From Dehalococcoidia bacterium (GTDB taxonomy: Bacteria > Chloroflexota > Dehalococcoidia > GIF9 > UBA5629), in NCBI GenBank assembly GCA_050011565.1, contig JBEKIW010000003.1, positions 242,383-306,382 of the forward strand: a stretch of 64,000 bases of DNA, given 5' to 3'. The position numbers and the translations under genes were made by a program. The notes beneath the pieces are model-generated. The model made no database searches. It was not told where the DNA came from and was given only the letters and a program-made list of their open reading frames with translations. Position 1 is the first letter of the stretch. Each line of letters opens with the position of its first letter. This document shows, piece by piece, positions 1 to 60,529 of this stretch.

Positions 1-578
1 TTAATAGCTCGCTCAACGATAAGACGGACCTCAGCATCACTCAAGGAATTCAGACTAAACACCCGGCATCTGGAAAGCAGCGCTGAGATAACTTCAAAGG
101 AAGGATTTTCTGTAGTGGCGCCGATGAGAATTACTACACCGTTTTCCACATACGGCAATATGACGTCTTGCTGAGTCTTATTAAATCGGTGAATTTCATC
201 AATAAACAGGATAGTACGCTGTCCGGTAAGCCTGCGTCTACGCCTGGCCTCATTCACAATGCGCCGTAAATCCGCGACTCCGGCATTGACGGCACTTAGA
301 GGGCTGAAATGCGATTTGGTAACGTTAGCGATAACGTAGCCTAAAGTTGTCTTGCCGCTGCCTGGTGGCCCCCAGAGAATCATCGAAGGTAACTGGTCTG
401 CTTCGATGGATTTTCTCAGCACCCGCCCTTTGCCCACAATATGTTCTTGCCCCACAAACTCATCGAAATTATGTGGGCGCATTCTGGCGGCTAGAGGTAA
501 ATCACCGGGCAATTCACCGTATGCCCAAACATCCTTTTTCTCCTTCTCCTCCTGCCCAGTCAAATCGAAAAGAGTCAT
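1..578 (-). CDS. rarA: Replication-associated recombination protein A (RarA/MgsA AAA+ ATPase), 5' part; runs off the window start
   Basis: Not in the ORF track. Manual translation from ATG at 578: MTLFDLTG...PLAARMRPHNFDEFVGQEHIVG...MILWGPPGSGKTT (Walker A)...LFIDEIHRFNKTQQD...LIGATTENPSFEV, all typical RarA motifs. Confidence 0.95.
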   Translation of the reverse strand, partial: MTLFDLTGQEEKEKKDVWAYGELPGDLPLAARMRPHNFDEFVGQEHIVGKGRVLRKSIEADQLPSMILWGPPGSGKTTLGYVIANVTKSHFSPLSAVNAGVADLRRIVNEARRRRRLTGQRTILFIDEIHRFNKTQQDVILPYVENGVVILIGATTENPSFEVISALLSRCRVFSLNSLSDAEVRLIVERAI

Positions 579-579
579 G

Positions 580-1689
580 CTAATCCGTCTTCTTCTCCGC
601 CTCCACCGCTGGGGCTAGCCTGGCTGCCCTGTCATAATAGCTTTTAATTCTGTCAACATAAATCAACTCCGAAACAAGCACTGTCACTTTGGTAAAATTC
701 TTCGAGCCATAGAAATTACCATCTCTTATTTCAGCATTGGGTGCCAGCTCTCGTAGGCGATTACCCAGAGCCTTAATCATGTCCACATTGGCTTTTCCGG
801 CCGGTGCCGAAAGTAGAAACAAACCCTTACCGGCATCTTCCAGCTTGCAGTCAACCGACAACCGCATTAAAGCCAAATCCATGGCTTCCATGACTCTGAA
901 CGTATCAGAGCTCTTCCCCTCGAACCCGGCAGTTCTTCTGAACGAAAATATAGAGGATTGGAACTGGGCCTTGCCGACACCTATTGCCGTCCAACCGAAT
1001 AGACTTTGCATGATATCACCGGCGTCGAGCACTTTCCCGGCAACATACTTCGAGCCGGCTATCTCGCCAGCGCAGAGCAGGTCATAGAAGGGCAAAACTA
1101 ATTCCCTATTCAAGCCGCCCATCTTTTGCGGTTGGGCTATGTTCCCCAGCAGCCCCAAACCCCCGTTATCTGCTAGAAATACAGCATCAGCCACCTTGTC
1201 AATGGTCTTTAGACACATAGCCGTATTGTGAATACGCTGCGCATCGTCCAGCTCAGAATCAAAGGGTAAAACTAGAAGCGCGTAAACCGGCTTATCGATA
1301 TGGCGCTCTTTGAGCATCTGAATCATCACCGGAAGACCGCCGGAACCAAGGCTACCGGCAGCGCCGGCAATGAACAGAAAGGCATCAGTATTTATGAAAG
1401 CACCCAGCCTCATGGCTAACATAACCCGCTCGCTTTCATGACGCATCAGCTTGGCTCCTGCTTCCGTCGACTTATCTCCCATCCCAAGAGAGCCGCGAAT
1501 AGGTACTGCCTTCAGCCAGTCCCATCCCGATTTAGTCAGTTCAGCCAGAACAGCCGGCTCATTATTAACGGCATAGGCGCAGGTAACTATGTTAGCGTGC
1601 CATTCTGCTCTCGCCATTTTATTTAACTCAGCGAATTCGCGAGCCAGTCTACAGCCGCAGTCTCCAACGCCGATAACCATCAATTTCAT
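580..1689 (-). CDS. Tubulin/FtsZ superfamily protein (CetZ-like) with a divergent GTP-binding loop
   Basis: N-terminal MKLMVIGVGDCGCRLA, signature region AGAAGSLGSGG, LVLPF, ADAVFLADN, T7-like VLDAGDI; 369 aa with no FtsZ C-terminal tail. Confidence 0.85.
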   Translation of the reverse strand: MKLMVIGVGDCGCRLAREFAELNKMARAEWHANIVTCAYAVNNEPAVLAELTKSGWDWLKAVPIRGSLGMGDKSTEAGAKLMRHESERVMLAMRLGAFINTDAFLFIAGAAGSLGSGGLPVMIQMLKERHIDKPVYALLVLPFDSELDDAQRIHNTAMCLKTIDKVADAVFLADNGGLGLLGNIAQPQKMGGLNRELVLPFYDLLCAGEIAGSKYVAGKVLDAGDIMQSLFGWTAIGVGKAQFQSSIFSFRRTAGFEGKSSDTFRVMEAMDLALMRLSVDCKLEDAGKGLFLLSAPAGKANVDMIKALGNRLRELAPNAEIRDGNFYGSKNFTKVTVLVSELIYVDRIKSYYDRAARLAPAVEAEKKTD

Positions 1690-1711: not shown

Positions 1712-1740
1712 AAAGTAGCAGATATACACCGTTATGTCAA
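1712..1740 (-). promoter_or_regulatory. sigma70-type promoter for the tubulin-like gene and rarA
   Basis: TTGACA (1740-1735), 17 nt spacer, TACTTT (1717-1712) on the minus strand, overlapping the amrA stop codon. Confidence 0.5.
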
Positions 1741-2252
1741 GCAAACCTTTCCACCCGGAAACGATACAATCTTATCGGCTCCCCGGCTGATATGCCGGCT
1801 TTAGCCCGGCAAATTTCCATTTGTTCTTCAACTTTATCCACGCCTGCCAGGTCAGGCAACAACAGCCCGCGCCTGTAACCGCATTCTACAATCACACCAT
1901 ATTTCCGGGGGTCAAGCTGGTCAGTGCTTTGCACCGGCTCCGGTTCCGTAAGAATATCTACACTATATTCAAGGTCAACCAGCTCAGAGGTCTCCACCGG
2001 CATAAACCTTGGGTCCTGTGTAGCTGAGCTTATAGCATTGGCTACGATTTCCTCAGCTACGTTCGTCCTTGTTGGCATGAAAGTACCGATACAGCCCCTT
2101 AATTCACCGCGCTTCTTAATAGATACAAAAACTCCTGCCCTCTGCTTCATCTCAGCGGTAAGCTTCCGCGGCTTGAATATCTTGCCCTGGCGGATATACC
2201 TTTCTACTGCTTTTCGAGCTAATTCAACTATCGCAGGACGTGGTTTAGTCAT
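1737..2252 (-). CDS. amrA: AmmeMemoRadiSam system protein A (AMMECR1 domain)
   Basis: [22 protein letters not shown] and GLLLP motifs. Confidence 0.93.
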
Positions 2253-2271
2253 TTGACTGCATTCTCTCCGA

Positions 2272-3075
2272 TTACTTTATTAATATTCCGGCATAACCCA
2301 CCACACTGCTGTAATCACCCGATGCGTCGCCGCTGGTCTGATACTTAACCAATTCTGCTTTTTTAGCGCCCATTTCCTTGGCCGCAGAGATAAGGCTGAC
2401 CACCGGTGCATAACCGCACATTGATATATCAAAATCAGCAACTCGTCTCAATAACTCGTCCTCATCTAAATTCAATATAGCCTCAATCGCCTTACTGTCC
2501 TTCTTCCTGGCTGACTCCTGAGGCTCATAATGCGTCATGTCGCTGCTGGCCAGGATTGTGACTTGCTTCTTCGACTCTTTTATGGCGGCGGCTAATTCCT
2601 TACCGATTCTCTTATATACATTCCCGCGAGCGTGAGCCAGAACTATGGGCACTATCCTAACATCTGGTTTGAAATACTGCAAAAAGGGCACCTGGACCTC
2701 AAGAGAGTGCTCAAATTGATGCGCCATATGGTCTTCTTCCAAATAGCTCGAAGATGTTAAAATTCGCTGTCCCAGCTCCGAGTCAATCTCCGTCTCACCT
2801 AAAGGTGTTATCCACGTGCCTTTGGTCATGATACTAAAACTTTTTCCTCGCCCGGTGTGATTTGGGCCAAGCATGACAAAGGTATCATTGAATTTAATCT
2901 CAGATATGACTGCTCCGGCTACCATACCCGAGTAGACATATCCGGCATGAGGCGAAATCAGCCCGATTACCTCAACCTTCCCTGCCTTGTCGTCTACCAT
3001 GCTCTCAATCATCGTCCTGAGCCCGTCCGATGAGCCCGGGTAGAACTGTCCGGCAGCAATCGGCTCTCTAATCAT
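2272..3075 (-). CDS. amrB: AmmeMemoRadiSam system protein B (MEMO1 family)
   Basis: [37 protein letters not shown] and VVGY motifs. Confidence 0.95.
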
Positions 3076-4135
3076 GCACTCCTCCTCGTGATAGTAAAAA
3101 CTGGCGAACCCAACCGGTCGTCTTGATATTAAGCTCAGACCCGCAAAACTTACACTTGGAACCGTCTACGCCAACTATGTCAACGTCATACCCCACCCGC
3201 TTAATCACCACGTTGCCGCAGCAGTAACAAACCGTGTTTTCCGCACTATGGCCGGGCACATTACCCAGATATACGAAACGCAGCCCAACTTTTTTGCCGA
3301 TATTGTAAGCCTTTTCCAGGCTTGCTATCGATGTCGGCGGCAGATGCATCAGGTTGTATTGTGGATAGAATCGGGTCACATGCCACGGTGTCAGCTCACC
3401 CAGCTCATCGCGTATCCAGCCGGCGATACCGTTTAGCTGCTCGTCATCGTCATTCATCGTCGGAATAATATTAGTCACCACCTCGACATGCATTCCCCAC
3501 TTTTTTTGAGCTCTCTTGGTAACGTCCAGTATGCCTCGCCACCGTGGAATTTTGGCTAAGTCACGATATAATTTGTCGGAAAAGCCCTTGATATCAACGC
3601 GCCAGGCATCAAGATAGGGGCCGATGGCATCCAGAGCTTCAGGTGTCAGGTAACCGTTGGTAACGTATCCCGTATAAAGGCCCTCTTTCTTGGCCAGTTT
3701 GGCTGAGTCCAGAGTATATTCGAACCAGATGCTCGGCTCGTTATACGTCCAGGTAATACCGCCGCAGCCGCGCTGCTTAGCCAGCTTCACAGCCTCCTCC
3801 GGCGGCAAGTAACGTGACTCATCTGACATCTCCGCCGGTGTCTCAATACAGGAAATCTGCCAGTTTTGACAATGTTTGCAGTGAAAATTACATCCCCAGG
3901 TGCCCAGGGATAAAGCTGAACTTCCCGGGAAAAAATGAAACAGGGGCTTTTTCTCAATAGGGTCAACAGCTACCGAGGAGGCTTGAGCGTAGTTGAGAAC
4001 ATGGAGAATACCGTCATCGTTTCGGCGCACCCGACAGACACCAAATTTGCCGGGGTTAATCACACAGCGCCATTGACAGATATTGCATCGTACCCTGGAT
4101 TCAGAAAGCTTTTCATAAATGAACACTTCAATCAT
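3068..4135 (-). CDS. amrS: AmmeMemoRadiSam system radical SAM enzyme
   Basis: N-terminal Cys cluster, DPIEKKPLFHF, GCNFHCKHCQNWQIS (CxxxCxxC), TYNEP; adjacent to amrB/amrA. Confidence 0.95.
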   Translation of the reverse strand: MIEVFIYEKLSESRVRCNICQWRCVINPGKFGVCRVRRNDDGILHVLNYAQASSVAVDPIEKKPLFHFFPGSSALSLGTWGCNFHCKHCQNWQISCIETPAEMSDESRYLPPEEAVKLAKQRGCGGITWTYNEPSIWFEYTLDSAKLAKKEGLYTGYVTNGYLTPEALDAIGPYLDAWRVDIKGFSDKLYRDLAKIPRWRGILDVTKRAQKKWGMHVEVVTNIIPTMNDDDEQLNGIAGWIRDELGELTPWHVTRFYPQYNLMHLPPTSIASLEKAYNIGKKVGLRFVYLGNVPGHSAENTVCYCCGNVVIKRVGYDVDIVGVDGSKCKFCGSELNIKTTGWVRQFLLSRGGVHD

Positions 4136-43182: not shown

Positions 43183-44028
43183 ATGAACGACTATGGATAC
43201 ACTATCAACAGTGCAACATTGCCACGCGATGAAGAAAAATTCGTGGAAAGGAAGGAGATGAGATACCGATTGTCTCCTGTAGCAAATGGTATCAAGGTGA
43301 ACGGTAAAATCATGCTGCCGGCGAACGCCAGTGCCTCTAATCTCGTCCCCGGTGCGGTTCTATGCCATGGTTTTGGCGCAGACCAGAACGTTATGGAATC
43401 CAGTGCTCTGCTTCTGGTCAAGAAGGGAATAGCGACCATCGTCTTTGATTTGCGCGGTCACGGTTCGAGCGAAGGTTGCCTCGATGGCAACTTTGAAACA
43501 GATGTAATCGATGCCTGGCGGCTGCTTACCAGTTTACGTGAAGTCGATAGTTCACGGGTTGCCCTCATCGGGCACAGTCTTGGTGCCCTCTCATCAATTC
43601 TGGCTGCAAAAATAGTGAAGCCAAAAGCGATAGTGGCCTTATCATGCCCCTATGATATAAATGGAAGGGGGCTTAAGGATCCTTCTCATAAGGTTTTCCC
43701 TTTGGTTAGGTGGGCGGTTACTGTTATTTGGAGGTTTGCCATATTGTTCACGGGCCAAAAAGTAAAAGTGAATTGGAAAAAGTTCCTTGAATCATGGTCG
43801 CAGGTGAAGCTGTCTTCAGCACTAGCGGAGCTTGGTGAATGTGACAAGCTCTTTGTTTTCAGCGAAGACGACAGGCTAACCCCGTACAAGAAGTTCGCCC
43901 AAATCTACGAGAAAGCCCCCGGGCCAAAGCAAAAAATGTTGACCAGAGGGTCTCATTCAACACCGGTCGAAGCGGAGATTCTTCGCTTCGAATGGGTTGG
44001 CTGGGTTGTCTCAGCTTTAACTGTCTGA
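43183..44028 (+). CDS. Alpha/beta hydrolase
   Basis: CHGFG, DLRGHGSS, GHSLG nucleophile elbow, Asp/His near the C-terminus. Confidence 0.88.
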   Translation: MNDYGYTINSATLPRDEEKFVERKEMRYRLSPVANGIKVNGKIMLPANASASNLVPGAVLCHGFGADQNVMESSALLLVKKGIATIVFDLRGHGSSEGCLDGNFETDVIDAWRLLTSLREVDSSRVALIGHSLGALSSILAAKIVKPKAIVALSCPYDINGRGLKDPSHKVFPLVRWAVTVIWRFAILFTGQKVKVNWKKFLESWSQVKLSSALAELGECDKLFVFSEDDRLTPYKKFAQIYEKAPGPKQKMLTRGSHSTPVEAEILRFEWVGWVVSALTV

Positions 44029-44164
44029 AAGTCTGCTGACCTGATCCAATAATTACACCGCTTTCTAAGTTAGAGGCACTTATCGTTTCCGTGTCCGGCT
44101 GAATGAGTTCCTGGCTGCCTTCCCGCCAAAATAGCAAAGTGCTAGCCTGCAAGTATACCGATTG

Positions 44165-45160
44165 TCATTTCACTCGTAAGCAAGCTTTGACAGTATCTTT
44201 AAAAGCTTTTTGTAGATTCCCCCTACCATAGCCAAGTTCTTTAACTGCTGGTGATGGATCAAAAAATGTATTTCTTGTTTGAATTGCTGCAAACTTAACA
44301 GGATCAAGTCCACCTTCTTCACCACGAAGTTTGTGCCGCAATTTTATTATTCTCAGGATAAGTCGGACCACAAAGGTCGGTAGTATTATTATCTTCTTTT
44401 TCTTGCCAAGTATATTCAATATTTTTTCTATGAATTCAACCCATGTAAGGTTTTCATCTCCAATTGTATAATGTTCTCCACCCCTTCCAGTTTCGATGGC
44501 TCCCACGATAGCTTGACCAACATGTTCAACAGCGATCATATTAGTCCCCCCTTTCATATAGAAAAGAGGGTAACGAGAATTGATATATTCTATTAGAGGT
44601 TTCCACAACGGTGTTCGACCAGGCATGCTACCAAAAATATAGGGCAACTCGAGAATCACCAACTGAAGATCTGGCATAGCAGCGTCCATAGACCTCCGAG
44701 CTTGTTCCTTTCTGGATCTTATGTAAGAATGATATTCTGATAGCTTTTCATTTGGCCAAACACGATCGAAGTACAAGAAATATGAACTCAAAATAACACC
44801 ACGCTTTATACCTGATTGGCGAGCAAGCGATATAATTCTCTCACAGGATCGAACATTAGCCTGATAGAAAAACTCATATGCTGGAGCTTTGGGGATAACC
44901 CGGTCATCGGCTCCAGCAGCGAAAACTATTGCGTCGTGACCTTTTAGGATATCCATGATGTTACTATCGTCTAGTTCATCGATATTTACCAGGACAACAT
45001 TTACATCTTTTGGGAACAGGCCTTCTTCAGGCAATGGTGGGAGAGCGATTACGGTGACACTATGTTCTCGATAGATAAATTCTTTAACCGCGCAATATCC
45101 AAGGAAACCAGTCCCACCAATAACTACCACCTTTTGCTTTTGATGAGACTTTTCGACCAT
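44165..45160 (-). CDS. NAD-dependent epimerase/dehydratase family protein
   Basis: IGGTGFLG, FAAGAD, YIRSR. Confidence 0.85.
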   Translation of the reverse strand: MVEKSHQKQKVVVIGGTGFLGYCAVKEFIYREHSVTVIALPPLPEEGLFPKDVNVVLVNIDELDDSNIMDILKGHDAIVFAAGADDRVIPKAPAYEFFYQANVRSCERIISLARQSGIKRGVILSSYFLYFDRVWPNEKLSEYHSYIRSRKEQARRSMDAAMPDLQLVILELPYIFGSMPGRTPLWKPLIEYINSRYPLFYMKGGTNMIAVEHVGQAIVGAIETGRGGEHYTIGDENLTWVEFIEKILNILGKKKKIIILPTFVVRLILRIIKLRHKLRGEEGGLDPVKFAAIQTRNTFFDPSPAVKELGYGRGNLQKAFKDTVKACLRVK

Positions 45161-45294
45161 ATGATTATCTCTTAAAAGTTATGGCTAACAGTATAACAGT
45201 GAAAGGTTTCTTAGATGAATTACGAAGTAACAAAATGGTTGATTGTTCAACCTTTTGCATAGCAACAAGCTCGTAGTTGAGGCCGCATGTTTGA

Positions 45295-45870
45295 TTATCC
45301 TTCCTCATCACTACTATTGTTCTTCCACGGGCTTAATCTCGGGATCCATCGAGGCACATTATTCCTATAACGAAGGTATTCATCGCCAAAGCGTTTAACT
45401 AACCCCGGTTCTTCCGAAAGTATGAAATAAACATGATTTGTAACAAAACACAAGATAAACCAACTCAATATTGCGATAGAACCGAACACAATCGATTCTC
45501 CAAGTAGCGCAATTAACACGCCTGAAATCATCGGGTTTCGAACGTAGCGATATGGCCCGATAACCACAAGTTTCTTTGTCGGTGCCCACGGAGCCAGGGT
45601 TCCTTTACCGACCTTCATAAAAAGCATAATAGTAGCTATCAGCAAATATAAACCGGCCATGACGGTAATAAACCCAATACAAACTACAAGTGCGTCGTAA
45701 GGTAATCCCAGTCCCCAACCGAATCTAAAACCTTTTGTGCCAACAATAACCAATAATGGGATAACCACTAATACTGTGAACGGTAAGACGAAAGACCTAA
45801 TTTGGGAGGCTGTATTCTGGTGCATTTTTACAATGTTGTCTAGTTGCATTATATAGCAAATGCCCTTCAA
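45295..45870 (-). CDS. ICMT/PEMT-family membrane methyltransferase
   Basis: GKGTLAPW..TKKLVVIGPYRYVRNPM, EEPGL..RFG.EY..Y...VPRW. Confidence 0.85.
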   Translation of the reverse strand: MKGICYIMQLDNIVKMHQNTASQIRSFVLPFTVLVVIPLLVIVGTKGFRFGWGLGLPYDALVVCIGFITVMAGLYLLIATIMLFMKVGKGTLAPWAPTKKLVVIGPYRYVRNPMISGVLIALLGESIVFGSIAILSWFILCFVTNHVYFILSEEPGLVKRFGDEYLRYRNNVPRWIPRLSPWKNNSSDEEG

Positions 45871-46002
45871 TGAAATATATTGCTTCAGCTTTGCCCAAAG
45901 ATTGAAGAACTATCAGATTGCACTTATTGACGAAATGTGTCTTTTAAATACGATGTTGATATTGATGGTTGTGCCGCGTTACACTAGCCGTTATCAATAA
46001 CC

Positions 46003-46650
46003 GTGAGAAATAATGTGATCAAATTGTTCAAGAAAGAACTGCGGGGTATCGCCTCCTTTTTCAGGAGAAACTACCGTGAGATAGTCGTAATCGGTTTAGC
46101 CACTCTTTTTCTCACCGTCGCCGGATATCATCCGATCGGGCCACCATGGGTTAGCTCTCTAATATATTTTGCAGTATTGCCCATTATAACTATTACGGTT
46201 ATTTTGCGAAGAAATCCCCTGGATTTTGGTCTGAGGTTAGGTAACTTCAAGGTATGGGGTTTTTATGTCATCGCCACACTAATAGTTGCGCTTCCCATAC
46301 TTTATGTAGCCTCTCGTAGCTCTCTCCTGGCAAATTATTACACTCTACGGCAATTCGATGTGGTCAAATACTCTCTCGAGACGACTGCATATTTGTTAGC
46401 CTGGGAATTTTTATTTCGAGGCTTTCTCCTCTTCGGGCTAAAGGAGAAATTAAAGGAGAGCAGCATACTGGTTCAAATGGTCCCGTTTGTACTTGTTCAT
46501 TTCGGGAAGCCGGAGATAGAAACAATAAGCACCATATTAACGGGAATCTATTTTGGCTATGTCGCATATCGCGGAAATTCCTATTGGCCAGCTTTTATTA
46601 TTCACCTGTTTATCAATATTATCTTTCTAATTTTCGTGAATATTTTCTGA
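46003..46650 (+). CDS. CPBP (Abi/Rce1-like CAAX) intramembrane protease
   Basis: WEFLFRG, FVLVH, IIHLFIN motifs; multi-TM. Confidence 0.85.
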   Translation: MRNNVIKLFKKELRGIASFFRRNYREIVVIGLATLFLTVAGYHPIGPPWVSSLIYFAVLPIITITVILRRNPLDFGLRLGNFKVWGFYVIATLIVALPILYVASRSSLLANYYTLRQFDVVKYSLETTAYLLAWEFLFRGFLLFGLKEKLKESSILVQMVPFVLVHFGKPEIETISTILTGIYFGYVAYRGNSYWPAFIIHLFINIIFLIFVNIF

Positions 46651-46660
46651 GGCAACCCGC

Positions 46661-46700
46661 TCATTCTGAGCCTGTCGAAGAATGTACCCTCGCGATGACA
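46661..46700. repeat. REP-like remnants
   Basis: TCATTCTGAGCCTGTCGAAGAA followed by CTCGCGATGACA (family A end). Confidence 0.45.
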
Positions 46701-46718
46701 AAATAATTGGTCAAGAAA

Positions 46719-47879
46719 TTATCTTTTTAATATGGTAACGACAGCATTTGGGCCGGCACCGCTGCTGTGACATAGCCCAATCTTAGCCCCCTGAACTTGC
46801 CTGGGACCGGCAAGTTCCCGTAGTTGATTAACTATCTCAATAATCTGCCGCCCGCCGGTAGCTCCCAGCGGATGTCCGCAGCCCACAAGGCCGCCGCCTG
46901 TATTTGCCGGGAGCTTTCCTCCTATCTCAAAATAGCCCTCTCTCAGCAGGTGAGGGGCCTCTCCCGGTTGGCAAAAACCCAGGTCCTCGACATCCGACAG
47001 AAATGCGGGCGCCATGGCTTCGTAAGCCTCGATTACATCCATGTCCTCCGGACCGTAGCCTGAGATTTCCCAGGCTTGCCTGGCTGCTTCCTTGGTCAGA
47101 TTGGTGGTCGACTTAAACTTGATGCTTTCCCCTCCGTAAAATCCGGTAGTATGAACGGCGGCAGCTACTTCAATCTTCTTCTCCTTTGAAATACGTGACT
47201 TAAGCTTGTCACCGCTGCACAAGATAATAGCCACCGCTCCGTCTACCATCGCGGCAGCGTGCAACAGGCGTACCGGCGCGGCAATTACACGAGAGTTAAG
47301 AACCTCTTCGATGGTAACCTCCCCGCCCTGATACCATCTGGCGTACGGATTCAGATTGGCATTCTTGCGCTCCATCACGACTACCCGGGCAAAATCCTCT
47401 TCGGTGGCTCCATAATCTGCCATATACCTCACCACCCCTTGAGCATAGTTTGCCGGCTGGATATTAAACCCCAAAGCCAGTTCCCATGGTTTAAAGGCAG
47501 TGCTGGCTAGCAGACCTCGGCCCATCTTCTCAAAGCCAAGTGCAATTACGATATCATATAACTCAGTAGCCACCATCTGGTAGCCTAGCCTGAACGCCGC
47601 TGATGAACTGGAGCAAGCCTGCTCGATATTGATAATCGGTATGCCGGTTAGACCCACCTCGGCAATGACCTGATGACCTTTGCCTGTCCCGGCGTAGACA
47701 TTGCCGCAGAATGCCGACTGGATATCTTTCCATTCCATCTCCGCATCTTCCAGGCAATTCAGTATTGCCTGACTTCCAAAATCGTAATATTCCTGGTCAT
47801 CGTATCTCTGAAACCTGACTATACCAATCCCACCTATGTAAACCTTGCGCAAGGCTTGCAATTCTTTTATCGACTTCAT
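46719..47879 (-). CDS. SCP2-type thiolase
   Basis: NIEQACSS, DGAVA, GCGHPLGATG, RQVQGA. Confidence 0.9.
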   Translation of the reverse strand: MKSIKELQALRKVYIGGIGIVRFQRYDDQEYYDFGSQAILNCLEDAEMEWKDIQSAFCGNVYAGTGKGHQVIAEVGLTGIPIINIEQACSSSSAAFRLGYQMVATELYDIVIALGFEKMGRGLLASTAFKPWELALGFNIQPANYAQGVVRYMADYGATEEDFARVVVMERKNANLNPYARWYQGGEVTIEEVLNSRVIAAPVRLLHAAAMVDGAVAIILCSGDKLKSRISKEKKIEVAAAVHTTGFYGGESIKFKSTTNLTKEAARQAWEISGYGPEDMDVIEAYEAMAPAFLSDVEDLGFCQPGEAPHLLREGYFEIGGKLPANTGGGLVGCGHPLGATGGRQIIEIVNQLRELAGPRQVQGAKIGLCHSSGAGPNAVVTILKR

Positions 47880-54968: not shown

Positions 54969-55919
54969 ATGCCGGATATAATGCCGATCGACAGCGCGGC
55001 AATCGAGGTACGCAATCTTACCAAGCGCTATGGGGCAGTCACTGCGGTTGACAAAATCAGCTTTGCAGTTGGGACAGGTGAGTTCTTCGGCTTCCTCGGT
55101 CCCAACGGTGCCGGGAAGACAACTACCATAAGGATGCTCACCGGGGTCATCGAAGCAGACGAGGGCATTGCCCTGCTTAAAGGCTCCGGAGTTGGGAGTC
55201 TGAAGGCGAAACAGATGGCTGGAGTTGTCCCGGAGATGGCAAATGCTTACGTCGATCTCTCGGGCTGGGACAACCTGATGCTTATGGCCGAACTTTATGG
55301 TGTCTCCTCCAGTGAGGCAAAGGAAAGAAGCCAAGCCCTATTGGAATCTCTGGGACTTATCGAGCGGAAAGATAGCCTGGTCAAGACATATTCCAAGGGG
55401 ATGAAGCAGCGGCTCATCCTAGGTATGGCTCTCGTGAGTAACCCCGACATACTCTTCCTGGACGAGCCCACCTCTGGATTGGATGTTCAGAGCACTCGCC
55501 TGATTAAAGAACTGCTACGCAGCCTGAATGGTGGAGGAAAAACTATCTTTCTCACCACCCACGACATGGATGAAGCCAACCAACTCTGCGACCGAGTAGC
55601 TATTATCAACAAGGGCAAAATAGTTGCCATTGATGCCCCGGAGAAACTGAGAATGGCTACTAGCGGCCGGCATTCTGTTGAAATTAGCTTTAATGAGAGT
55701 GTAAATCTGGAGAGTCTGGCACAGCTCCCTGGAGTGAAAGAATTTGAAAAGGTCGGTGACAAGTACCGTCTCTATACGGATAACCCGAGTGAGCTTGTGA
55801 TAACACTAGTCAACTATTCCTCCGCTGCTGGCCTTAAGATAGTTACCCTCAATACGTTGGCCCCTTCTTTAGAAGATGCATTTGTAGCATTGACCGGCAT
55901 GGAGGCAAGGCATGTTTGA
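54969..55919 (+). CDS. ABC-2 type (DrrA-like) exporter ATPase
   Basis: GPNGAGKTT, YSKGMKQR, LDEPTSGLD, TTHDMDEA, LEDAF. Confidence 0.93.
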   Translation: MPDIMPIDSAAIEVRNLTKRYGAVTAVDKISFAVGTGEFFGFLGPNGAGKTTTIRMLTGVIEADEGIALLKGSGVGSLKAKQMAGVVPEMANAYVDLSGWDNLMLMAELYGVSSSEAKERSQALLESLGLIERKDSLVKTYSKGMKQRLILGMALVSNPDILFLDEPTSGLDVQSTRLIKELLRSLNGGGKTIFLTTHDMDEANQLCDRVAIINKGKIVAIDAPEKLRMATSGRHSVEISFNESVNLESLAQLPGVKEFEKVGDKYRLYTDNPSELVITLVNYSSAAGLKIVTLNTLAPSLEDAFVALTGMEARHV

Positions 55920-56667
55920 GCTAGCTACGGCATGGCAGCAGTTTCGTCGTGCACTGGTAATAGCAGGCAAGGATATCCGTATCTACTACTCCAAGGGGCC
56001 GGTAATAATCTTTGGAGTTCTATTCCCCATTTTTCTATTTCTGTCTTTTACCATTGGCAGGCATGTGACCGTTGAATTTATGATACCTGGACTTTTGGGA
56101 ATGATTCTGTTCTTCACTGCGACCTCAATCTCACCGATAGTCATGCCGTGGGAAGCACAGGCAAGAACGTTAGAGCGGCTGATGTCCTGTCCGATAAAAC
56201 CGGAAACCATAGTCATGGGGGACATAATTGCCTCTTTCGCCTTCGGGGCAGCCATATCAATTGTGCCCGTGATTATTGGCCTTGTCATGGGAATAACAAT
56301 ATCAAACCCGATGATTCTTGCGTTAGCGATTATTCTAGCGGCTATTTGTTTTGCTGCTCTCGGTATTATATTCTCAATTCCACCTACCAATATACCTGCT
56401 ACAATAAATATGATTGCCTCAGTGGTCAAATTCCCGGTGGTCTTTATCAGTGGGATTTTTATCTCGTTGAATGAACTGCCTGTCTGGGGACAGTGGATTG
56501 CCTATATATCACCTCTAACCTACTTCACTGACATTGCCCGTAATTATATTCAGGGCCAGGGATACCTGCCACCTGTTATTGACTTCGCTGCCCTGACAGG
56601 TTTTACTGTCGTTTTTCTTCTGGTAGCTATATACATGCACAGGAAGACAATGCCAATGAGAATATGA
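55912..56667 (+). CDS. ABC-2 type exporter permease
   Basis: Six TM segments, TLERL, FISGIF, SPLTY. Confidence 0.9.
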   Translation: MFELATAWQQFRRALVIAGKDIRIYYSKGPVIIFGVLFPIFLFLSFTIGRHVTVEFMIPGLLGMILFFTATSISPIVMPWEAQARTLERLMSCPIKPETIVMGDIIASFAFGAAISIVPVIIGLVMGITISNPMILALAIILAAICFAALGIIFSIPPTNIPATINMIASVVKFPVVFISGIFISLNELPVWGQWIAYISPLTYFTDIARNYIQGQGYLPPVIDFAALTGFTVVFLLVAIYMHRKTMPMRI

Positions 56668-56824
56668 TGTGAAAAAATGCATAAATCGGACGTAACTAAC
56701 GATTTTTTACAAAAAATTCACATCATCTTCGTCAAATCTTCAAAAAATCTTGATATATGAACTATAGGGTCTTAACATTACAGCAGAAATCTATGCGCTG
56801 TTATTATTAAATAGAGTCAGGTAA

Positions 56825-58114
56825 ATGTTTTATTACGCTATAAAAGAGCTGTTGAAAAGGAAAAAGTTATACTTGCTCAATGTCATGACTATCGGCTTGG
56901 TCACGTTGATGGTCATCACCTTGAACAGTCTGGCAACTGCCTATAGAGAAGCAGCTAGATTACCATTCGAGGATATTCAAGGAAACATTATCATACAGAG
57001 AAATGGGAATGTTCCTGAGACTACATCAGGAGTTTTATTATCATGTTCGCTGGCACCGATCCCACAGGTGTTAGTATCCCAAATAATCAATATTGATGGA
57101 GTAAAAGATGTTTCCGCCGCTCTTTCGCTATGGGTTTTCGATCCGGATAATTTCAAACGCGTTTCAGGAGTCGATTTCCATGACAACTTCGGCAAAAAGC
57201 TGGCCGCTAAATTGATTGATGGTTCCATCCCCAACACAGATAACCAAATACTCGTCGAAAAGACCTATGCCCAAAAATATCCACTTGAAGTAGGCCAGGA
57301 AACTACTATATCAGGCCAGCATTTTACAGTCACTGGAATTGTAGGCACCGCTGGGAACGAGGTTATGGCATCTGATATTTATCTCAATTTAGGAGCGGCT
57401 CAAGAAATGGCCTATCAATCAAAAAACCTGCAGCAGGTGGAGACCTTCAATAAGACAGATGTGAATGTAATATTTGTTAATGTCAGCCAACCTGACCTGA
57501 AAACCATAGCACAGAATATAAAAGAAATTGTAACAGACTCAGGTATAAATACGGGGAAAACACCCTTAGGCGAGACCATCGGCAGTTACAATATCTACAC
57601 ACCGGAATCGTTCGAGAATCAAATATCAACAGTTTTCCGCATATCGGATAAATTAACATGGGTCATTTCCCTGATACTTTTTATTGGAGCTGCGATTATA
57701 GTTGCCAGAAACGCACTGCGTATTATCCTGGAAAGAAGAAGAGAATTCGGTATCATGAAAACTGTCGGTTTCAGAAATCGGGATATACAAAGTGAAGTGA
57801 ACTTAGAAACCTTTATTCAGATTGTTGCCGGTTTTTTTGCGGGTCTTATTCTATCAGCAATCGCAGTCGTCACCTTGAGCCATACCACGGTATCTATAGC
57901 CATACCCTGGGAATTAACTGCCTATCCTCATTTTCTGCTCAGTAACCCCAGCGAAGCAAATGTCACTCAAATGCATTTCCTTCCAATTAGACTAGAACCG
58001 TTATATGTATTTGCGTCATTGGCAATCATCATGGTTGTGGGGCTGGCCACTTCATTCCTAAGCGTTTGGCAGATAAATAAACTCAAACCCATGGAGGTGA
58101 TGAGACATGAATAA
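56825..58114 (+). CDS. MacB/FtsX-like ABC permease
   Basis: N-terminal TM, large extracytoplasmic domain, ERRREFGIMKTVG, KPMEV. Confidence 0.9.
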   Translation: MFYYAIKELLKRKKLYLLNVMTIGLVTLMVITLNSLATAYREAARLPFEDIQGNIIIQRNGNVPETTSGVLLSCSLAPIPQVLVSQIINIDGVKDVSAALSLWVFDPDNFKRVSGVDFHDNFGKKLAAKLIDGSIPNTDNQILVEKTYAQKYPLEVGQETTISGQHFTVTGIVGTAGNEVMASDIYLNLGAAQEMAYQSKNLQQVETFNKTDVNVIFVNVSQPDLKTIAQNIKEIVTDSGINTGKTPLGETIGSYNIYTPESFENQISTVFRISDKLTWVISLILFIGAAIIVARNALRIILERRREFGIMKTVGFRNRDIQSEVNLETFIQIVAGFFAGLILSAIAVVTLSHTTVSIAIPWELTAYPHFLLSNPSEANVTQMHFLPIRLEPLYVFASLAIIMVVGLATSFLSVWQINKLKPMEVMRHE

Positions 58115-58775
58115 TATTGTTACCGTGAATCAACTGACGAAAACCCTGGGTAATATCAGAATTATTGATCACGTATCCTTCAATATAGAAAAAGGTGAAT
58201 TTCTCGCTGTGCAGGGTCCATCCGGCTCTGGAAAAACTACCCTGATTGGCCTTTTAGCCGGCCTGGAAAAGGCAGACGAGGGTAACATTGTAATTGATGA
58301 TAACGAATTGACTTCGATGACCGAGGATGAACTGGCAATATTCCGCAGGTACAATGTCGGTTTCGTTTTTCAATCTTTCAACCTTATACCTACGCTCAAC
58401 GTAGTAGAGAATATCGCTCTGCCACTGTTCCCGGAGCATATATCCAGGAATGATATGTTTGAGCGGGCTCGAAAAGTGGCAAAGACTGTTGGGCTAACCG
58501 AAAGGTTGGACCATTATCCCAACGAGCTTTCTGGAGGTGAGCAGCAAAGGGTGGCAGTAGCCAGGTCATTGATAAATGAGCCTAAACTCATTTTTGCCGA
58601 TGAACCCACCGGTAACCTTGATAGTAAGACCGGTCAGATGATAATTGAACTACTGCGTAAACTGAATAGTGAAAGGGGGCAAACGGTGGTATTGGTGACA
58701 CATGACGACAGGATAGCTAAAGAATCTGACCGCATAATCAAACTCTTAGACGGGAGAATAGCTTATGAGAATTAG
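58107..58775 (+). CDS. LolD/MacB-type ABC ATPase
   Basis: [40 protein letters not shown]. Confidence 0.95.
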
Positions 58776-59286
58776 ACCGGCCGGTTTCACAGCGGTGCTT
58801 TTGTTAGGTACCCTGATAATAGGCTTTTTGTCTTCGACCGGGTGCTCCTCGGAATCTTCTGCCGGCGAGACTACTCAATCTCAATTAGAAACAAGTCTAT
58901 CAGACAATAAAGAATCTACATCAATCCCGTCTACAACAACACAGCCTCCCACAGAAGTCAGTTCACCCACAGTTCCAACAAGTCCTGTTAGCATTGTCAT
59001 TGCCGGATACATCAATCATGGCCCTATGCAACCGACAGTCCGTGCCATCAAGGAAGTACTTACCAAATACGATGATAAGGTCGCTGTCACCTGGATTGAC
59101 TTAGGCACAACGCAAGGAGAGAGTTATTTCCAGGACCACGGACTTACTGCACACATGAATGTCATAATAAACGGTACGTCAATATACCAGGTCGATGGCA
59201 AAACCGTAGATTTTGAGTGGTTCGAAGGCCAGCAATGGACTGAAAAAGACCTGGACACAGTATTGGCGAACCTAGTTAGCAAGTAA
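58765..59286 (+). CDS. Lipoprotein with Ser/Thr-rich linker and a small thioredoxin-like domain
   Basis: Lipobox STGC, S/T/P-rich linker, beta-NHGP-helix pattern. Confidence 0.65.
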   Translation: MRIRPAGFTAVLLLGTLIIGFLSSTGCSSESSAGETTQSQLETSLSDNKESTSIPSTTTQPPTEVSSPTVPTSPVSIVIAGYINHGPMQPTVRAIKEVLTKYDDKVAVTWIDLGTTQGESYFQDHGLTAHMNVIINGTSIYQVDGKTVDFEWFEGQQWTEKDLDTVLANLVSK

Positions 59287-59341
59287 TCACAAATTAACTA
59301 AATTAGTTACGAATTGTGATTGTCAAGGAATTTAAACGTAG

Positions 59342-60529
59342 TTGCTGTATCTTGTCAAGGAATTAACGCGAAGGAAAGGCAGGACTGTAACTAATCTGCT
59401 GGTTGTTGCAGTTTTGGTAGCTATTTTCGTGGTTCTGACCTCGGTGATGAATTCATACTCTGAAGCCATTTACCTGCCTTTTCAGGGCGTAGGTGTCGAC
59501 ATGGTAATTCATAAGTCTAGTCCTCAATCTGCCGATACTCCCACCAGCTCAATGCGCCTGCCCTTTGGCAGCGGAGTATTTAACCAGAACGAAATAGATA
59601 ACATAGCCGCCTTAAGTCATATAAAAGATGTCTCTAAGGCACTCATATTGTGGCAGTTTGACAAGGGGGAGTTCATTTCAATAGAAGGGCTGGAACCTGA
59701 CAGTTTCATAGGTGAGAAATATAAGTCATGGGTCACATCCGGTCATTTTCTCCAGGTGGGAGAGGAGCGTAAGGCGGTAGTTGAGAAGCACTTTGCCAAA
59801 TTCTATGGGCTGAATTTGGGAGACAGTGTGTTGTTAGGCAACACCCCTTTTGAAATTATTGGCATTCTTTCTACACAAGAGCAGAGCCAGATTTCTGCGA
59901 CAAACCTTTATGTAAATTTACCGGATGCGCAGATACTTCTGGACACAAAAGGGTACAGCCAGCTCTATGTCAAACTTGATGCTCTGTCTTCAGAGGATAC
60001 TGTCCGGTCCGAAGTCAGTGAAATTGATAAAGACGCTGTCGTTGTTTCAGGAAGCTCTATTGCGGCATCGGTTAGCAATGTTATTAAAATTTATGAGAAA
60101 TTCCGTTTGCTTGCCTTGGCGATTATTGCAATCATCCTAGCCCTAATATTGTTCCAGGTTAATACTACGTCTCTAATGGAACGAAGAAAAGACATAGGTA
60201 TTTTACAGACAGTTGGCTGGACGAAAGCAAACATAAGCAGGCAGATAATCTCGGAGATATTCGTACAGACCATGTTTGGGTTTATTCTGGGTATTATAGT
60301 CAGCATTCTCACACTAGTTGGCATTGGTTCTATAAGCATACAGGTCAACACAGCTCAGAGCCTGGGCAACAACTTGTCTACTTTAACCGCGCCTCTAGTA
60401 CCATCAATCGCCGCAATCGCTCAGTTTCTTATACTGACTTTGGGGATCTCAATCATAGTATCATTCTTCCTATCTAGACAGCTAGCCCGTATGAAACCAT
60501 TAGTTAATCTAAAAAACCAAAGCTTGTAA
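59342..60529 (+). CDS. Second MacB/FtsX-like ABC permease
   Basis: ERRKDIGILQTVGW, KP near the C-terminus, same topology as 56825..58114. Confidence 0.9.
   Translation: MLYLVKELTRRKGRTVTNLLVVAVLVAIFVVLTSVMNSYSEAIYLPFQGVGVDMVIHKSSPQSADTPTSSMRLPFGSGVFNQNEIDNIAALSHIKDVSKALILWQFDKGEFISIEGLEPDSFIGEKYKSWVTSGHFLQVGEERKAVVEKHFAKFYGLNLGDSVLLGNTPFEIIGILSTQEQSQISATNLYVNLPDAQILLDTKGYSQLYVKLDALSSEDTVRSEVSEIDKDAVVVSGSSIAASVSNVIKIYEKFRLLALAIIAIILALILFQVNTTSLMERRKDIGILQTVGWTKANISRQIISEIFVQTMFGFILGIIVSILTLVGIGSISIQVNTAQSLGNNLSTLTAPLVPSIAAIAQFLILTLGISIIVSFFLSRQLARMKPLVNLKNQSL

Follow-up and report, generated by a model that had tools for sequence, protein, structure and literature searches.

A CetZ-like tubulin paralogue with conserved, degenerate GTP-phosphate loops in Dehalococcoidia, and its probable role as a regulator of an intact sister protein

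A stretch of 64,000 nucleotides from a Dehalococcoidia bacterium (Chloroflexota; NCBI GenBank assembly GCA_050011565.1, contig JBEKIW010000003.1, positions 242,383 to 306,382), referred to here as the window, carries a gene for a CetZ-like member of the tubulin/FtsZ superfamily (P0001, also labelled DEG) with altered versions of the loops that hold the phosphates of guanosine triphosphate (GTP) in this fold. Judging from the comparison of its orthologues, this degenerate state is conserved and selected, and the protein probably regulates the filaments of an intact sister protein, P0122, encoded in the same genome outside the window.

The gene for P0001 is an intact minus-strand open reading frame (ORF) of 369 amino acids with an ATG start and a TAG stop (Table 1), and the sequence AAGGAG lies 11 bases 5' of the start codon. 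The Pfam family PF00091 (Tubulin) matches residues 3–177 (64.9 bits against a cut-off of 33; E = 1.5e-17) and PF21011 (CetZ_C) matches residues 193–356 (42.2 bits against a cut-off of 21.6; E = 7.7e-11), so that the family assignment is far beyond chance. Among sequences of solved structure, the top match is Haloferax CetZ1 (4b46; E = 9.3e-23, residues 1–355), with CetZ2 in second place (4b45; E = 1.1e-12) and weaker matches to BtubA, gamma-tubulin and FtsZ (E values of 4.5e-4, 0.011 and 0.045, respectively). Superfamily membership, given by the PF00091 domain, agrees with an AlphaFold2 (AF2) model based on an alignment of 117 relatives (pLDDT 84.6, pTM 0.87), for which Foldseek returned CetZ2 as the best structure (TM 0.82/0.90), followed by CetZ1 (TM 0.79/0.88). 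TubZ/PhuZ membership was not indicated: the matches cover short stretches (E values of 0.016–0.21) and the chromosomal slot of the gene is conserved across families. The protein scores 16.5 bits against the FtsZ equivalog TIGR00065, for which the cut-off is 295.2, and it has neither the linker, nor the C-terminal peptide, nor the dcw/ftsA context of an FtsZ, ending 12 residues past the conserved YYDRA helix; the true FtsZ of this genome lies on another contig (C4). All named homologues come from uncultured Dehalococcoidia or Chloroflexota metagenome-assembled genomes. A reading of the same DNA made from the letters alone (the sequence-only reading below) had described a bacterial CetZ-like tubulin lacking an FtsZ linker and C-terminal peptide, with GVGDCGCR, AGSLGSG and VLDAGDI as its T1, T4 and T7 loops. 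This description is borne out by the domains, closest structures and named homologues, by the presence of a canonical FtsZ in the same genome and by the position of the three motifs, at residues 7–14, 111–117 and 220–226. Public records name both this type of protein and its canonical paralogue "cell division protein FtsZ" or "cell division GTPase FtsZ". This label is wrong for both types, in the case of P0001 because of the large shortfall against TIGR00065.

In the tubulin/FtsZ fold, the T1 and T4 loops hold the GTP phosphates, T3 senses the gamma-phosphate and belongs to the top longitudinal face of the subunit, and the last part of the active site comes from the T7 loop of the next subunit. 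These elements were compared in an alignment of 117 degenerate-type and 72 canonical proteins, and then in a set of 197 distinct sequences obtained by adding 80 genome loci, from which one sequence (shorter than 300 amino acids) was dropped and five could not be parsed, leaving 165 degenerate and 26 canonical. All 72 canonical relatives have the G.GQ.G (T1) and GGTG (T4) forms that the sequence-only reading had taken as normal. The T1 Gln, present in 72/72 canonical proteins, is found in none of the 117 degenerate ones (D in 109, N in 4, K in 3 and R in 1) and in none of the 165 distinct orthologues. The His-Gly-Val of T3 is nearly invariant in canonical proteins (H in 70, G in 72 and V in 72 of 72), with gaps at the same three positions in 115, 114 and 111 of the 117 degenerate sequences. 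The T4 Thr, also present in 72/72, is lost from every degenerate protein in the alignment (L in 79, V in 21, I in 10 and F in 7), and L, V, I or F occupies this position in 165/165 distinct orthologues. The Gly before it (72/72 in the canonical set) is mostly Ser in the degenerate proteins (86/117) and is replaced in 162/165 distinct orthologues, in some of them by a bulky Y, F, R or N; to judge from the sequences, Y, R or F at this position should fill the phosphate site. A working signature of a GTP-phosphate site ([GA]GGTG[ST]G, G.GQ.G and a Gly-rich T3) is accordingly absent from all 117 aligned and all 165 distinct degenerate sequences.

Other parts of the pocket have been kept to varying degrees. 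The glycine scaffold of T1 and T4 (G7, G9, G12, G112 and G115) is invariant in the degenerate clade, Cys11 and Cys13, which follow the T1 substitution Asp10, are conserved at 90% or more, and the T6 Asn is relaxed from 72/72 in canonical to 99/117 in degenerate proteins. The catalytic acid of T7 (D225 in P0001, in the sequence LDAGD) is an Asp in 72/72 canonical proteins and an Asp (114) or a Glu (3) in the 117 degenerate ones. Residues 219–228 of P0001 (KVLDAGDIMQ, spanning T7 and H8) are identical to those of P0122, in a pair with an overall identity of only 48%.

The degenerate loops are best described, on comparative grounds, as a conserved and selected state rather than as decay, because the Gly-Thr pair of T4 is found in 0/165 orthologues and the ratio of nonsynonymous to synonymous substitution rates (dN/dS) is about 0.09. 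The sequence-only reading had proposed both comparisons, with canonical T4 loops in the orthologues as the outcome that would point to a copy simply decaying; that outcome was not observed, and the dN/dS value indicates purifying selection on the degenerate gene. For this estimate, 29 metagenome loci provided 22 complete degenerate genes (the window copy and 21 others), and pairwise Nei-Gojobori values were calculated for those pairs with dS between 0.05 and 1.5 (109 of 231 pairs, which are not independent of each other). The median was 0.089, with values of 0.042–0.086 against the window copy. At the same loci, the canonical partner gave 0.041 (17/21 pairs), RarA 0.092, AMMECR1 0.108 and Memo 0.100; the degenerate gene is, thus, similar to neighbouring housekeeping genes in this respect. 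Its frame is intact in 10/10 fully read genomes and in the 22 complete copies, and the degenerate substitutions are retained down to 42% identity. Constraint is unevenly distributed along the protein. Mean pairwise identities over 10 genomes with both paralogues, for regions delimited approximately from the motifs and the AF2 model, were 0.27 in the degenerate copy versus 0.97 in the partner for T3, 0.30 versus 0.87 for the H6 loop and 0.36 versus 0.85 for H2, with better conservation of the beta-strand core, H7 and H8 in the degenerate copy (0.58–0.76). By this measure, it is in the top-face regions, where the partner is most conserved, that the degenerate protein varies most.

The degenerate copies have a restricted distribution. 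A survey of a 301-genome sample of the class found CetZ-like matches in 57 genomes, and all 97 listed places were fetched. Ten copies were degenerate, one per genome, in the families f1 (8/8 genomes, including the window's genome, G000) and f3 (2/2), and each of these 10 genomes also carries a canonical copy, never more than one. All of the remaining 83 full-length copies are canonical, including those in complete single-contig genomes with two or three copies. A hidden Markov model (HMM) for the degenerate clade was then run over 202 genomes of the order; among the matches listed, a clearly separated one (514 bits or more, followed by scores of 480 or less) was found in 62 of the 76 f1 genomes other than G000 and in the single f79 genome, and in four more f1 genomes the gene is split up at contig ends or its frame is interrupted. 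No clearly separated match was found in 119 f2 genomes, for which the best listed score was 427 bits. The gap is clear in f1 (at least 514 versus at most 471 bits) and absent in f3 (474–480 bits), and f3, f80 and 10 f1 genomes, nine of them less than 90% complete, were accordingly left unclassified by the HMM. Typing by score alone with P0001 as the query was rejected, as the scores of degenerate and canonical copies overlap.

Phylogenetic analysis places the degenerate copies in one clade, with support of 100/99 in an IQ-TREE analysis of 56 rows and of 100 in a quick tree of 94 rows; the motif columns were retained in these alignments, and the clade is also defined independently by its chromosomal slot, with AMMECR1 on one side and rarA on the other. 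Its attachment to the canonical "A" lineage of the order has moderate support (91/64), and an origin from the widespread "B" paralogue lineage was rejected by the approximately unbiased (AU) test (p = 0.0002, for a group named after the tree had been seen). The degenerate gene appears, from these trees and its position, to have a single origin and to have been inserted once into the AMMECR1–rarA slot. In a FastTree analysis of 93 rows, the Dehalococcoidia main-group copies fall, together with unnamed representatives, in a clade of 40 rows (100*), and the other large clade contains a Halogeometricum protein named CetZ together with Nitrososphaerales (10 representatives looked up, 5 named). P0001 does not lie within this archaeal CetZ clade in that tree. 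The label "CetZ-like", a term used in PMC9871819, is preferred to "CetZ" here because the Dehalococcoidia clade is separate from the one with the named CetZ.

The sequence-only reading had allowed for a canonical CetZ-like partner encoded elsewhere, and such a gene was found 5.5 kb from P0001, in convergent orientation (P0122, 393 amino acids, G000:C3:236278-237459), with a single canonical copy likewise present in 10/10 genomes. P0122 is the nearest relative of P0001, belongs to the "A" lineage and shares its core, C-terminal domain and T7-H8 segment; unlike P0001, it has canonical loops (GLGQCGSR, GHGVGK and GGTGSG), a tail of about 30 residues, a 4–6 times slower rate of evolution and a TIG/terminase-like slot of its own. 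Tree path lengths for the degenerate gene and its partner are 0.66 versus 0.15 between G000 and G182, and 1.53 versus 0.26 between G000 and G013. Canonical copies end in a tail of the form EEAxKDxPSL[LI], with P390 and L392 invariant in 72 sequences; the tail of P0122 ends in PSLI, and the degenerate paralogue has no such tail. This ending resembles the C-terminal peptide DVPSFLRR of the same genome's FtsZ and may, from the likeness in sequence, be an anchor-binding motif shared with FtsZ. Ten positions are specific to the partners, such as Trp70 in T3 (10/10 partners and 0/59 elsewhere); they were not used as a signal of co-evolution, as they are confounded by shared ancestry.

The partner slot has the order Rho, TIG-domain membrane protein, partner gene, terminase-large-subunit-like gene and an ORF of 126 amino acids. 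The TIG and terminase-like genes are present in 10/10 genomes of f1 and f3, and in 6/6 and 5/6 genomes of f2, respectively. The TIG/Ig-domain neighbour of P0122 (599 amino acids) has a C-terminal membrane helix and a short basic tail, and lies on the same strand at a distance of 84 bases. The terminase-like gene (468 amino acids) and the 126-amino-acid ORF are on the strand opposite P0122, just outside the left end of the window. The terminase matches are weak (PHROG and Pfam, E values of about 5e-6 and 1e-4), and a prophage between the two paralogues was rejected as an explanation, given the conservation of the gene and its position across f1, f3 and f2.

The genome of the window (2.0 Mb, 8 contigs, 99.2% complete) has three PF00091 genes, encoding FtsZ, P0122 and P0001. 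Its FtsZ is canonical, with GGGTGTG and the C-terminal peptide mentioned above, and adjoins an actin-fold gene that is a putative ftsA (weak MreB_Mbl match); the earlier suggestion that the CetZ-like proteins form a non-FtsZ tubulin-family system agrees with the presence of this separate, true FtsZ. Wall-less biology is known for the class Dehalococcoidia. Family searches of this genome found no true MreB (only weak cross-matches to two actin-fold genes, at 45 and 39 bits), no SepF and no SEDS protein (FtsW/RodA), and a single gene with a Mur-ligase domain; these results, for a genome of this completeness, are consistent with a cell without a wall.

P0001 may best be seen, with a confidence that falls a little short of even, as an accessory subunit with a dead nucleotide site of its own, the T7 face of which would dock onto a canonical filament and cap or destabilize it. 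With the T1 Gln changed to Asp, GHGVG deleted from T3 and the Gly-Thr of T4 changed to Ser-Leu, the phosphate site has been rebuilt; P0001 would therefore be unable to hydrolyse GTP in its own pocket and, most probably, unable to bind it either. Its T7 face could dock onto that side of a canonical subunit which carries the GTP, where the conserved T7 acid would complete the active site of the partner and could trigger hydrolysis there. P0001 would then present a nucleotide-free, fast-evolving top face to which further subunits would add poorly, and, lacking the PSL[LI] tail, it would not itself be tethered. The outcome would be end-capping, length limitation or destabilization of a cytoskeleton that does not serve division, in a bacterium lacking both wall and MreB. 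P0122 should be able to polymerize and hydrolyse GTP by itself because its own T7 acid is kept (72/72 canonical proteins), which fits an accessory rather than an obligate role for P0001. The sequence-only reading, in which a pseudo-GTPase paralogue would cap or depolymerize filaments or form heteropolymers in a non-FtsZ system, stands as regards the conserved degenerate state, the canonical partner and the separation from FtsZ, with the mechanism still a prediction from sequence.

Several observations weigh against an accessory subunit of this kind. The first T7 Asp (D222 in P0001) is retained in 90 of the 117 degenerate copies and lost in the other 27 (G in 23 and S in 4). Residues on the ribose and base sides of the pocket are largely retained (E146 in 115/117, F201 in 113/117 and N194 in 117/117), and would also fit a kept nucleotide or another ligand. 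In E. coli FtsZ, the T108A substitution is reported to reduce GTPase activity almost to zero with GTP-dependent polymers still formed (PMC5979038; near-zero GTPase activity also in PMC13732431), and because of these polymers a loss of nucleotide binding is not readable from the Thr change alone, which, by analogy, need not abolish it. The rapid evolution of the degenerate copy relative to its partner may partly mean relaxed function, and the argument from a relaxed top face is indirect, with approximate region labels. The degenerate gene has breaks in its frame, at or close to short runs of T, in two genomes of the same genus (G466:C2:242765-243846 and G467:C2:38326-39416), where it is read in two to three frames in otherwise clean sequence; these breaks represent either a recent pseudogene or an indel error of sequencing or assembly, and a third genome of that genus (G468) has an intact copy. 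The linkage of the two paralogues is loose, since in four genomes the distance between them is 3–7 kb, in six they are on separate contigs, and in G471 about 460 kb separate them. Finally, the contact between P0001 and P0122 is itself deduced from sequence; a complex prediction for P0122 (with GTP and Mg) and P0001, run without controls, gave ipSAE values of 0.18, 0.31 and 0.24, with a median of 0.24 where the mark is 0.32, and speaks neither for nor against such contact.

An obligate heterodimer or alternating co-polymer like that of alpha/beta-tubulin is an unlikely alternative. The interface between a degenerate top and a canonical bottom would then be static and nucleotide-independent, and the other interface would contain exchangeable GTP, activated by the degenerate T7. 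This arrangement fits the presence of one copy of each type in 10/10 genomes, the T7 acid kept in all 117 degenerate proteins and the purifying selection on both genes; the few partner-specific positions, Trp70 among them, also point this way, subject to the confounding by shared ancestry noted above. In such a polymer, however, the site opposite the canonical T7 acid would hold no GTP, leaving the acid free to drift, yet it is invariant in the 72 canonical proteins and the 10 partners. The top-face loops of the degenerate protein are its least conserved parts, which is unexpected for a permanent interface, and the difference in evolutionary rate is unlike that of tightly co-evolving halves. 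The accessory subunit is preferred to alternation because the T7 of the partner is constrained and the degenerate top face is not conserved.

It is also rather improbable that P0001 acts alone, as an autonomous protein with a structural nucleotide or another ligand and no GTPase activity in cis, forming static homopolymers or serving as a monomeric scaffold. The properties of FtsZ T108A, which polymerizes with GTP and has almost no GTPase activity (PMC5979038), agree with this idea, as do the preserved base- and ribose-side residues and glycine scaffold, and Asp10, Cys11 and Cys13 could together create a new site for a ligand or metal. Against it, three phosphate elements are changed together, T3 by deletion, some orthologues have bulky residues at the T4 Gly and the T1 position varies between D, N, K and R. 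The universal T7 acid, moreover, would have no role unless it faced a GTP-bearing subunit, and homopolymers would offer none.

The gene neighbourhood raises a further candidate, that P0001 is a scaffold or substrate of the adjacent AMMECR1/Memo/radical-SAM system or a partner of RarA. A complete AMMECR1–Memo–radical SAM trio (AmmeMemoRadiSam-type) occupies window positions 1737–4135 on the same strand as P0001 and rarA. AMMECR1 lies directly upstream of the degenerate gene in 10/10 genomes, and in 9/10 rarA follows directly downstream (it was not found beside the gene in G132); stop and start codons abut or overlap, the rarA ATG in the window beginning one base after the stop codon of P0001. 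A function tied to this operon is nevertheless quite improbable, as the trio and rarA are widespread without a tubulin-like gene, P0001 derives from the CetZ-like "A" lineage (91/64; alternative p-AU 0.0002), apparently through one insertion into the slot, and a gene order kept across a single order with small genomes says little about shared function. A decaying copy on its way to loss, suggested by the fast evolution and the interrupted frames in G466 and G467, is scarcely credible given the intact frames in 10 genomes and 22 complete copies, dN/dS values of 0.04–0.09, the same substitutions kept down to 42% identity and the confident AF2 model.

Table 1. Coordinates, in the window, of the degenerate CetZ-like gene, its nucleotide-site loops and its neighbours.
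Feature	Position	Strand	Basis
Degenerate CetZ-like tubulin paralogue (DEG, P0001, 369 amino acids)	580..1689	-	ORF, Pfam Tubulin and CetZ_C, AF2 model, Foldseek
T7 loop, residues 218-228, GKVLDAGDIMQ	1006..1038	-	Alignment of 117 versus 72 proteins and comparison with P0122
T4 signature, residues 108-118, AGAAGSLGSGG (canonical AGAAGGTGSGA)	1336..1368	-	165 distinct orthologues
T3 region, residues 63-76, GHGVGK lost through a 3-residue deletion, variable	1462..1503	-	Alignment of 117 versus 72 proteins
T1 loop, residues 7-14, GVGDCGCR (Gln of G.GQ.G changed to Asp)	1648..1671	-	Alignment of 117 versus 72 proteins, 165 distinct sequences
rarA/mgsA (N-terminal part in window)	3..578	-	Pfam MgsA_C/AAA on full ORF
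AMMECR1	1737..2252	-	Pfam; directly upstream of degenerate gene in 10/10 genomes
Memo	2272..3075	-	Pfam; upstream neighbour
Radical SAM	3068..4135	-	Pfam; upstream neighbour

Elsewhere in the window, two stretches of low GC content (0.41; positions 43183–47879 and 54969–60529, which take in the low-GC segments at 44–46 kb and 56–58 kb) contain ordinary genes, encoding an alpha/beta hydrolase, an NAD-dependent epimerase, a PEMT-type methyltransferase, a CAAX protease-like protein, a thiolase, and ABC and MacB/FtsX-type transporters.

P0001 can be compared with several known systems. It resembles CetZ1 and CetZ2 of Haloferax volcanii (4b46 and 4b45) in its two-domain fold, its CetZ_C domain, the absence of an FtsZ-type linker and the structural match (TM 0.79–0.90); it differs from them in its bacterial host, an identity of only 24% and T1, T3 and T4 loops that are not of the CetZ type, and the Dehalococcoidia clade to which it belongs is a neighbour of the clade with the named haloarchaeal CetZ rather than a part of it. 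In alpha/beta-tubulin and BtubA/B, paralogous subunits have unequal nucleotide sites, with one subunit's T7 completing the site in its mate. Both subunits of these pairs bind GTP and keep GGGTGSG, unlike P0001, which has lost its phosphate loops; the pairing proposed here is a prediction, and the sequence similarity to tubulin and BtubA is marginal (E = 4e-4, one stretch of 80 residues). The FtsZ-like domain of the chloroplast protein ARC3 is not known to bind GTP. ARC3 directly inhibits Z-ring assembly (domain scheme in PMC12232670) and provides a precedent for a regulator, rather than a builder, of the filament of an active relative that is derived from the tubulin family; unlike P0001, it is multidomain and eukaryotic, has MORN repeats and is not a relative of CetZ. 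The substitution in P0001 affects the same signature position as FtsZ T108A. Unlike this laboratory point mutant, which assembles with GTP, the degenerate proteins have a natural replacement that is always larger and hydrophobic, and it is accompanied by changes in T1, T3 and the neighbouring Gly.

No description of the degenerate clade was found in the literature on CetZ in Chloroflexi/Dehalococcoidia or on pseudo-GTPase FtsZ, although supplements may list sequences. The literature covered contains a single mention of Dehalococcoidia CetZ-like proteins, with nothing on motif loss in the passages concerned, and the accessible text of a review of archaeal CetZ diversity (PMC9856176) has 0 occurrences of Chloroflexota. 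Partial pocket changes were observed in other, unnamed CetZ-like cluster representatives (P0128, P0132, P0202, P0152, P0208, P0254 and P0259), which have GCGDCGCR together with an intact GGTGS, or GSTGSG, GGMGSG, GGVGSG or GGGYGGG; erosion of the GTP site may, on this pattern, recur several times in the CetZ-like family.

CetZ proteins have been studied only in archaea, as cell shapers, and a related family is now seen in bacteria, where its genes are deposited as "cell division protein FtsZ", which should serve as a warning for annotation. It is possible, if distinctly tentative, that wall-less Dehalococcoidia have independently evolved a tubulin system with an active and an inactive subunit, in which the degenerate paralogue acts as an end cap and GTPase activator. 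Such a protein would have its laboratory equivalent in FtsZ mutants engineered with a dead interface and would be the first pseudo-GTPase dedicated to regulation in a prokaryotic tubulin family, and the partial degeneracies in other CetZ-like clusters suggest that this may be a recurrent way of controlling filaments. If the degenerate paralogue does regulate the canonical one, the pair would provide a simple two-protein system for filament capping and turnover by a regulator that has no GTP site of its own, an independent parallel to the way in which alpha- and beta-tubulin share out their tasks, and a handle on the setting of cell shape in wall-less bacteria.

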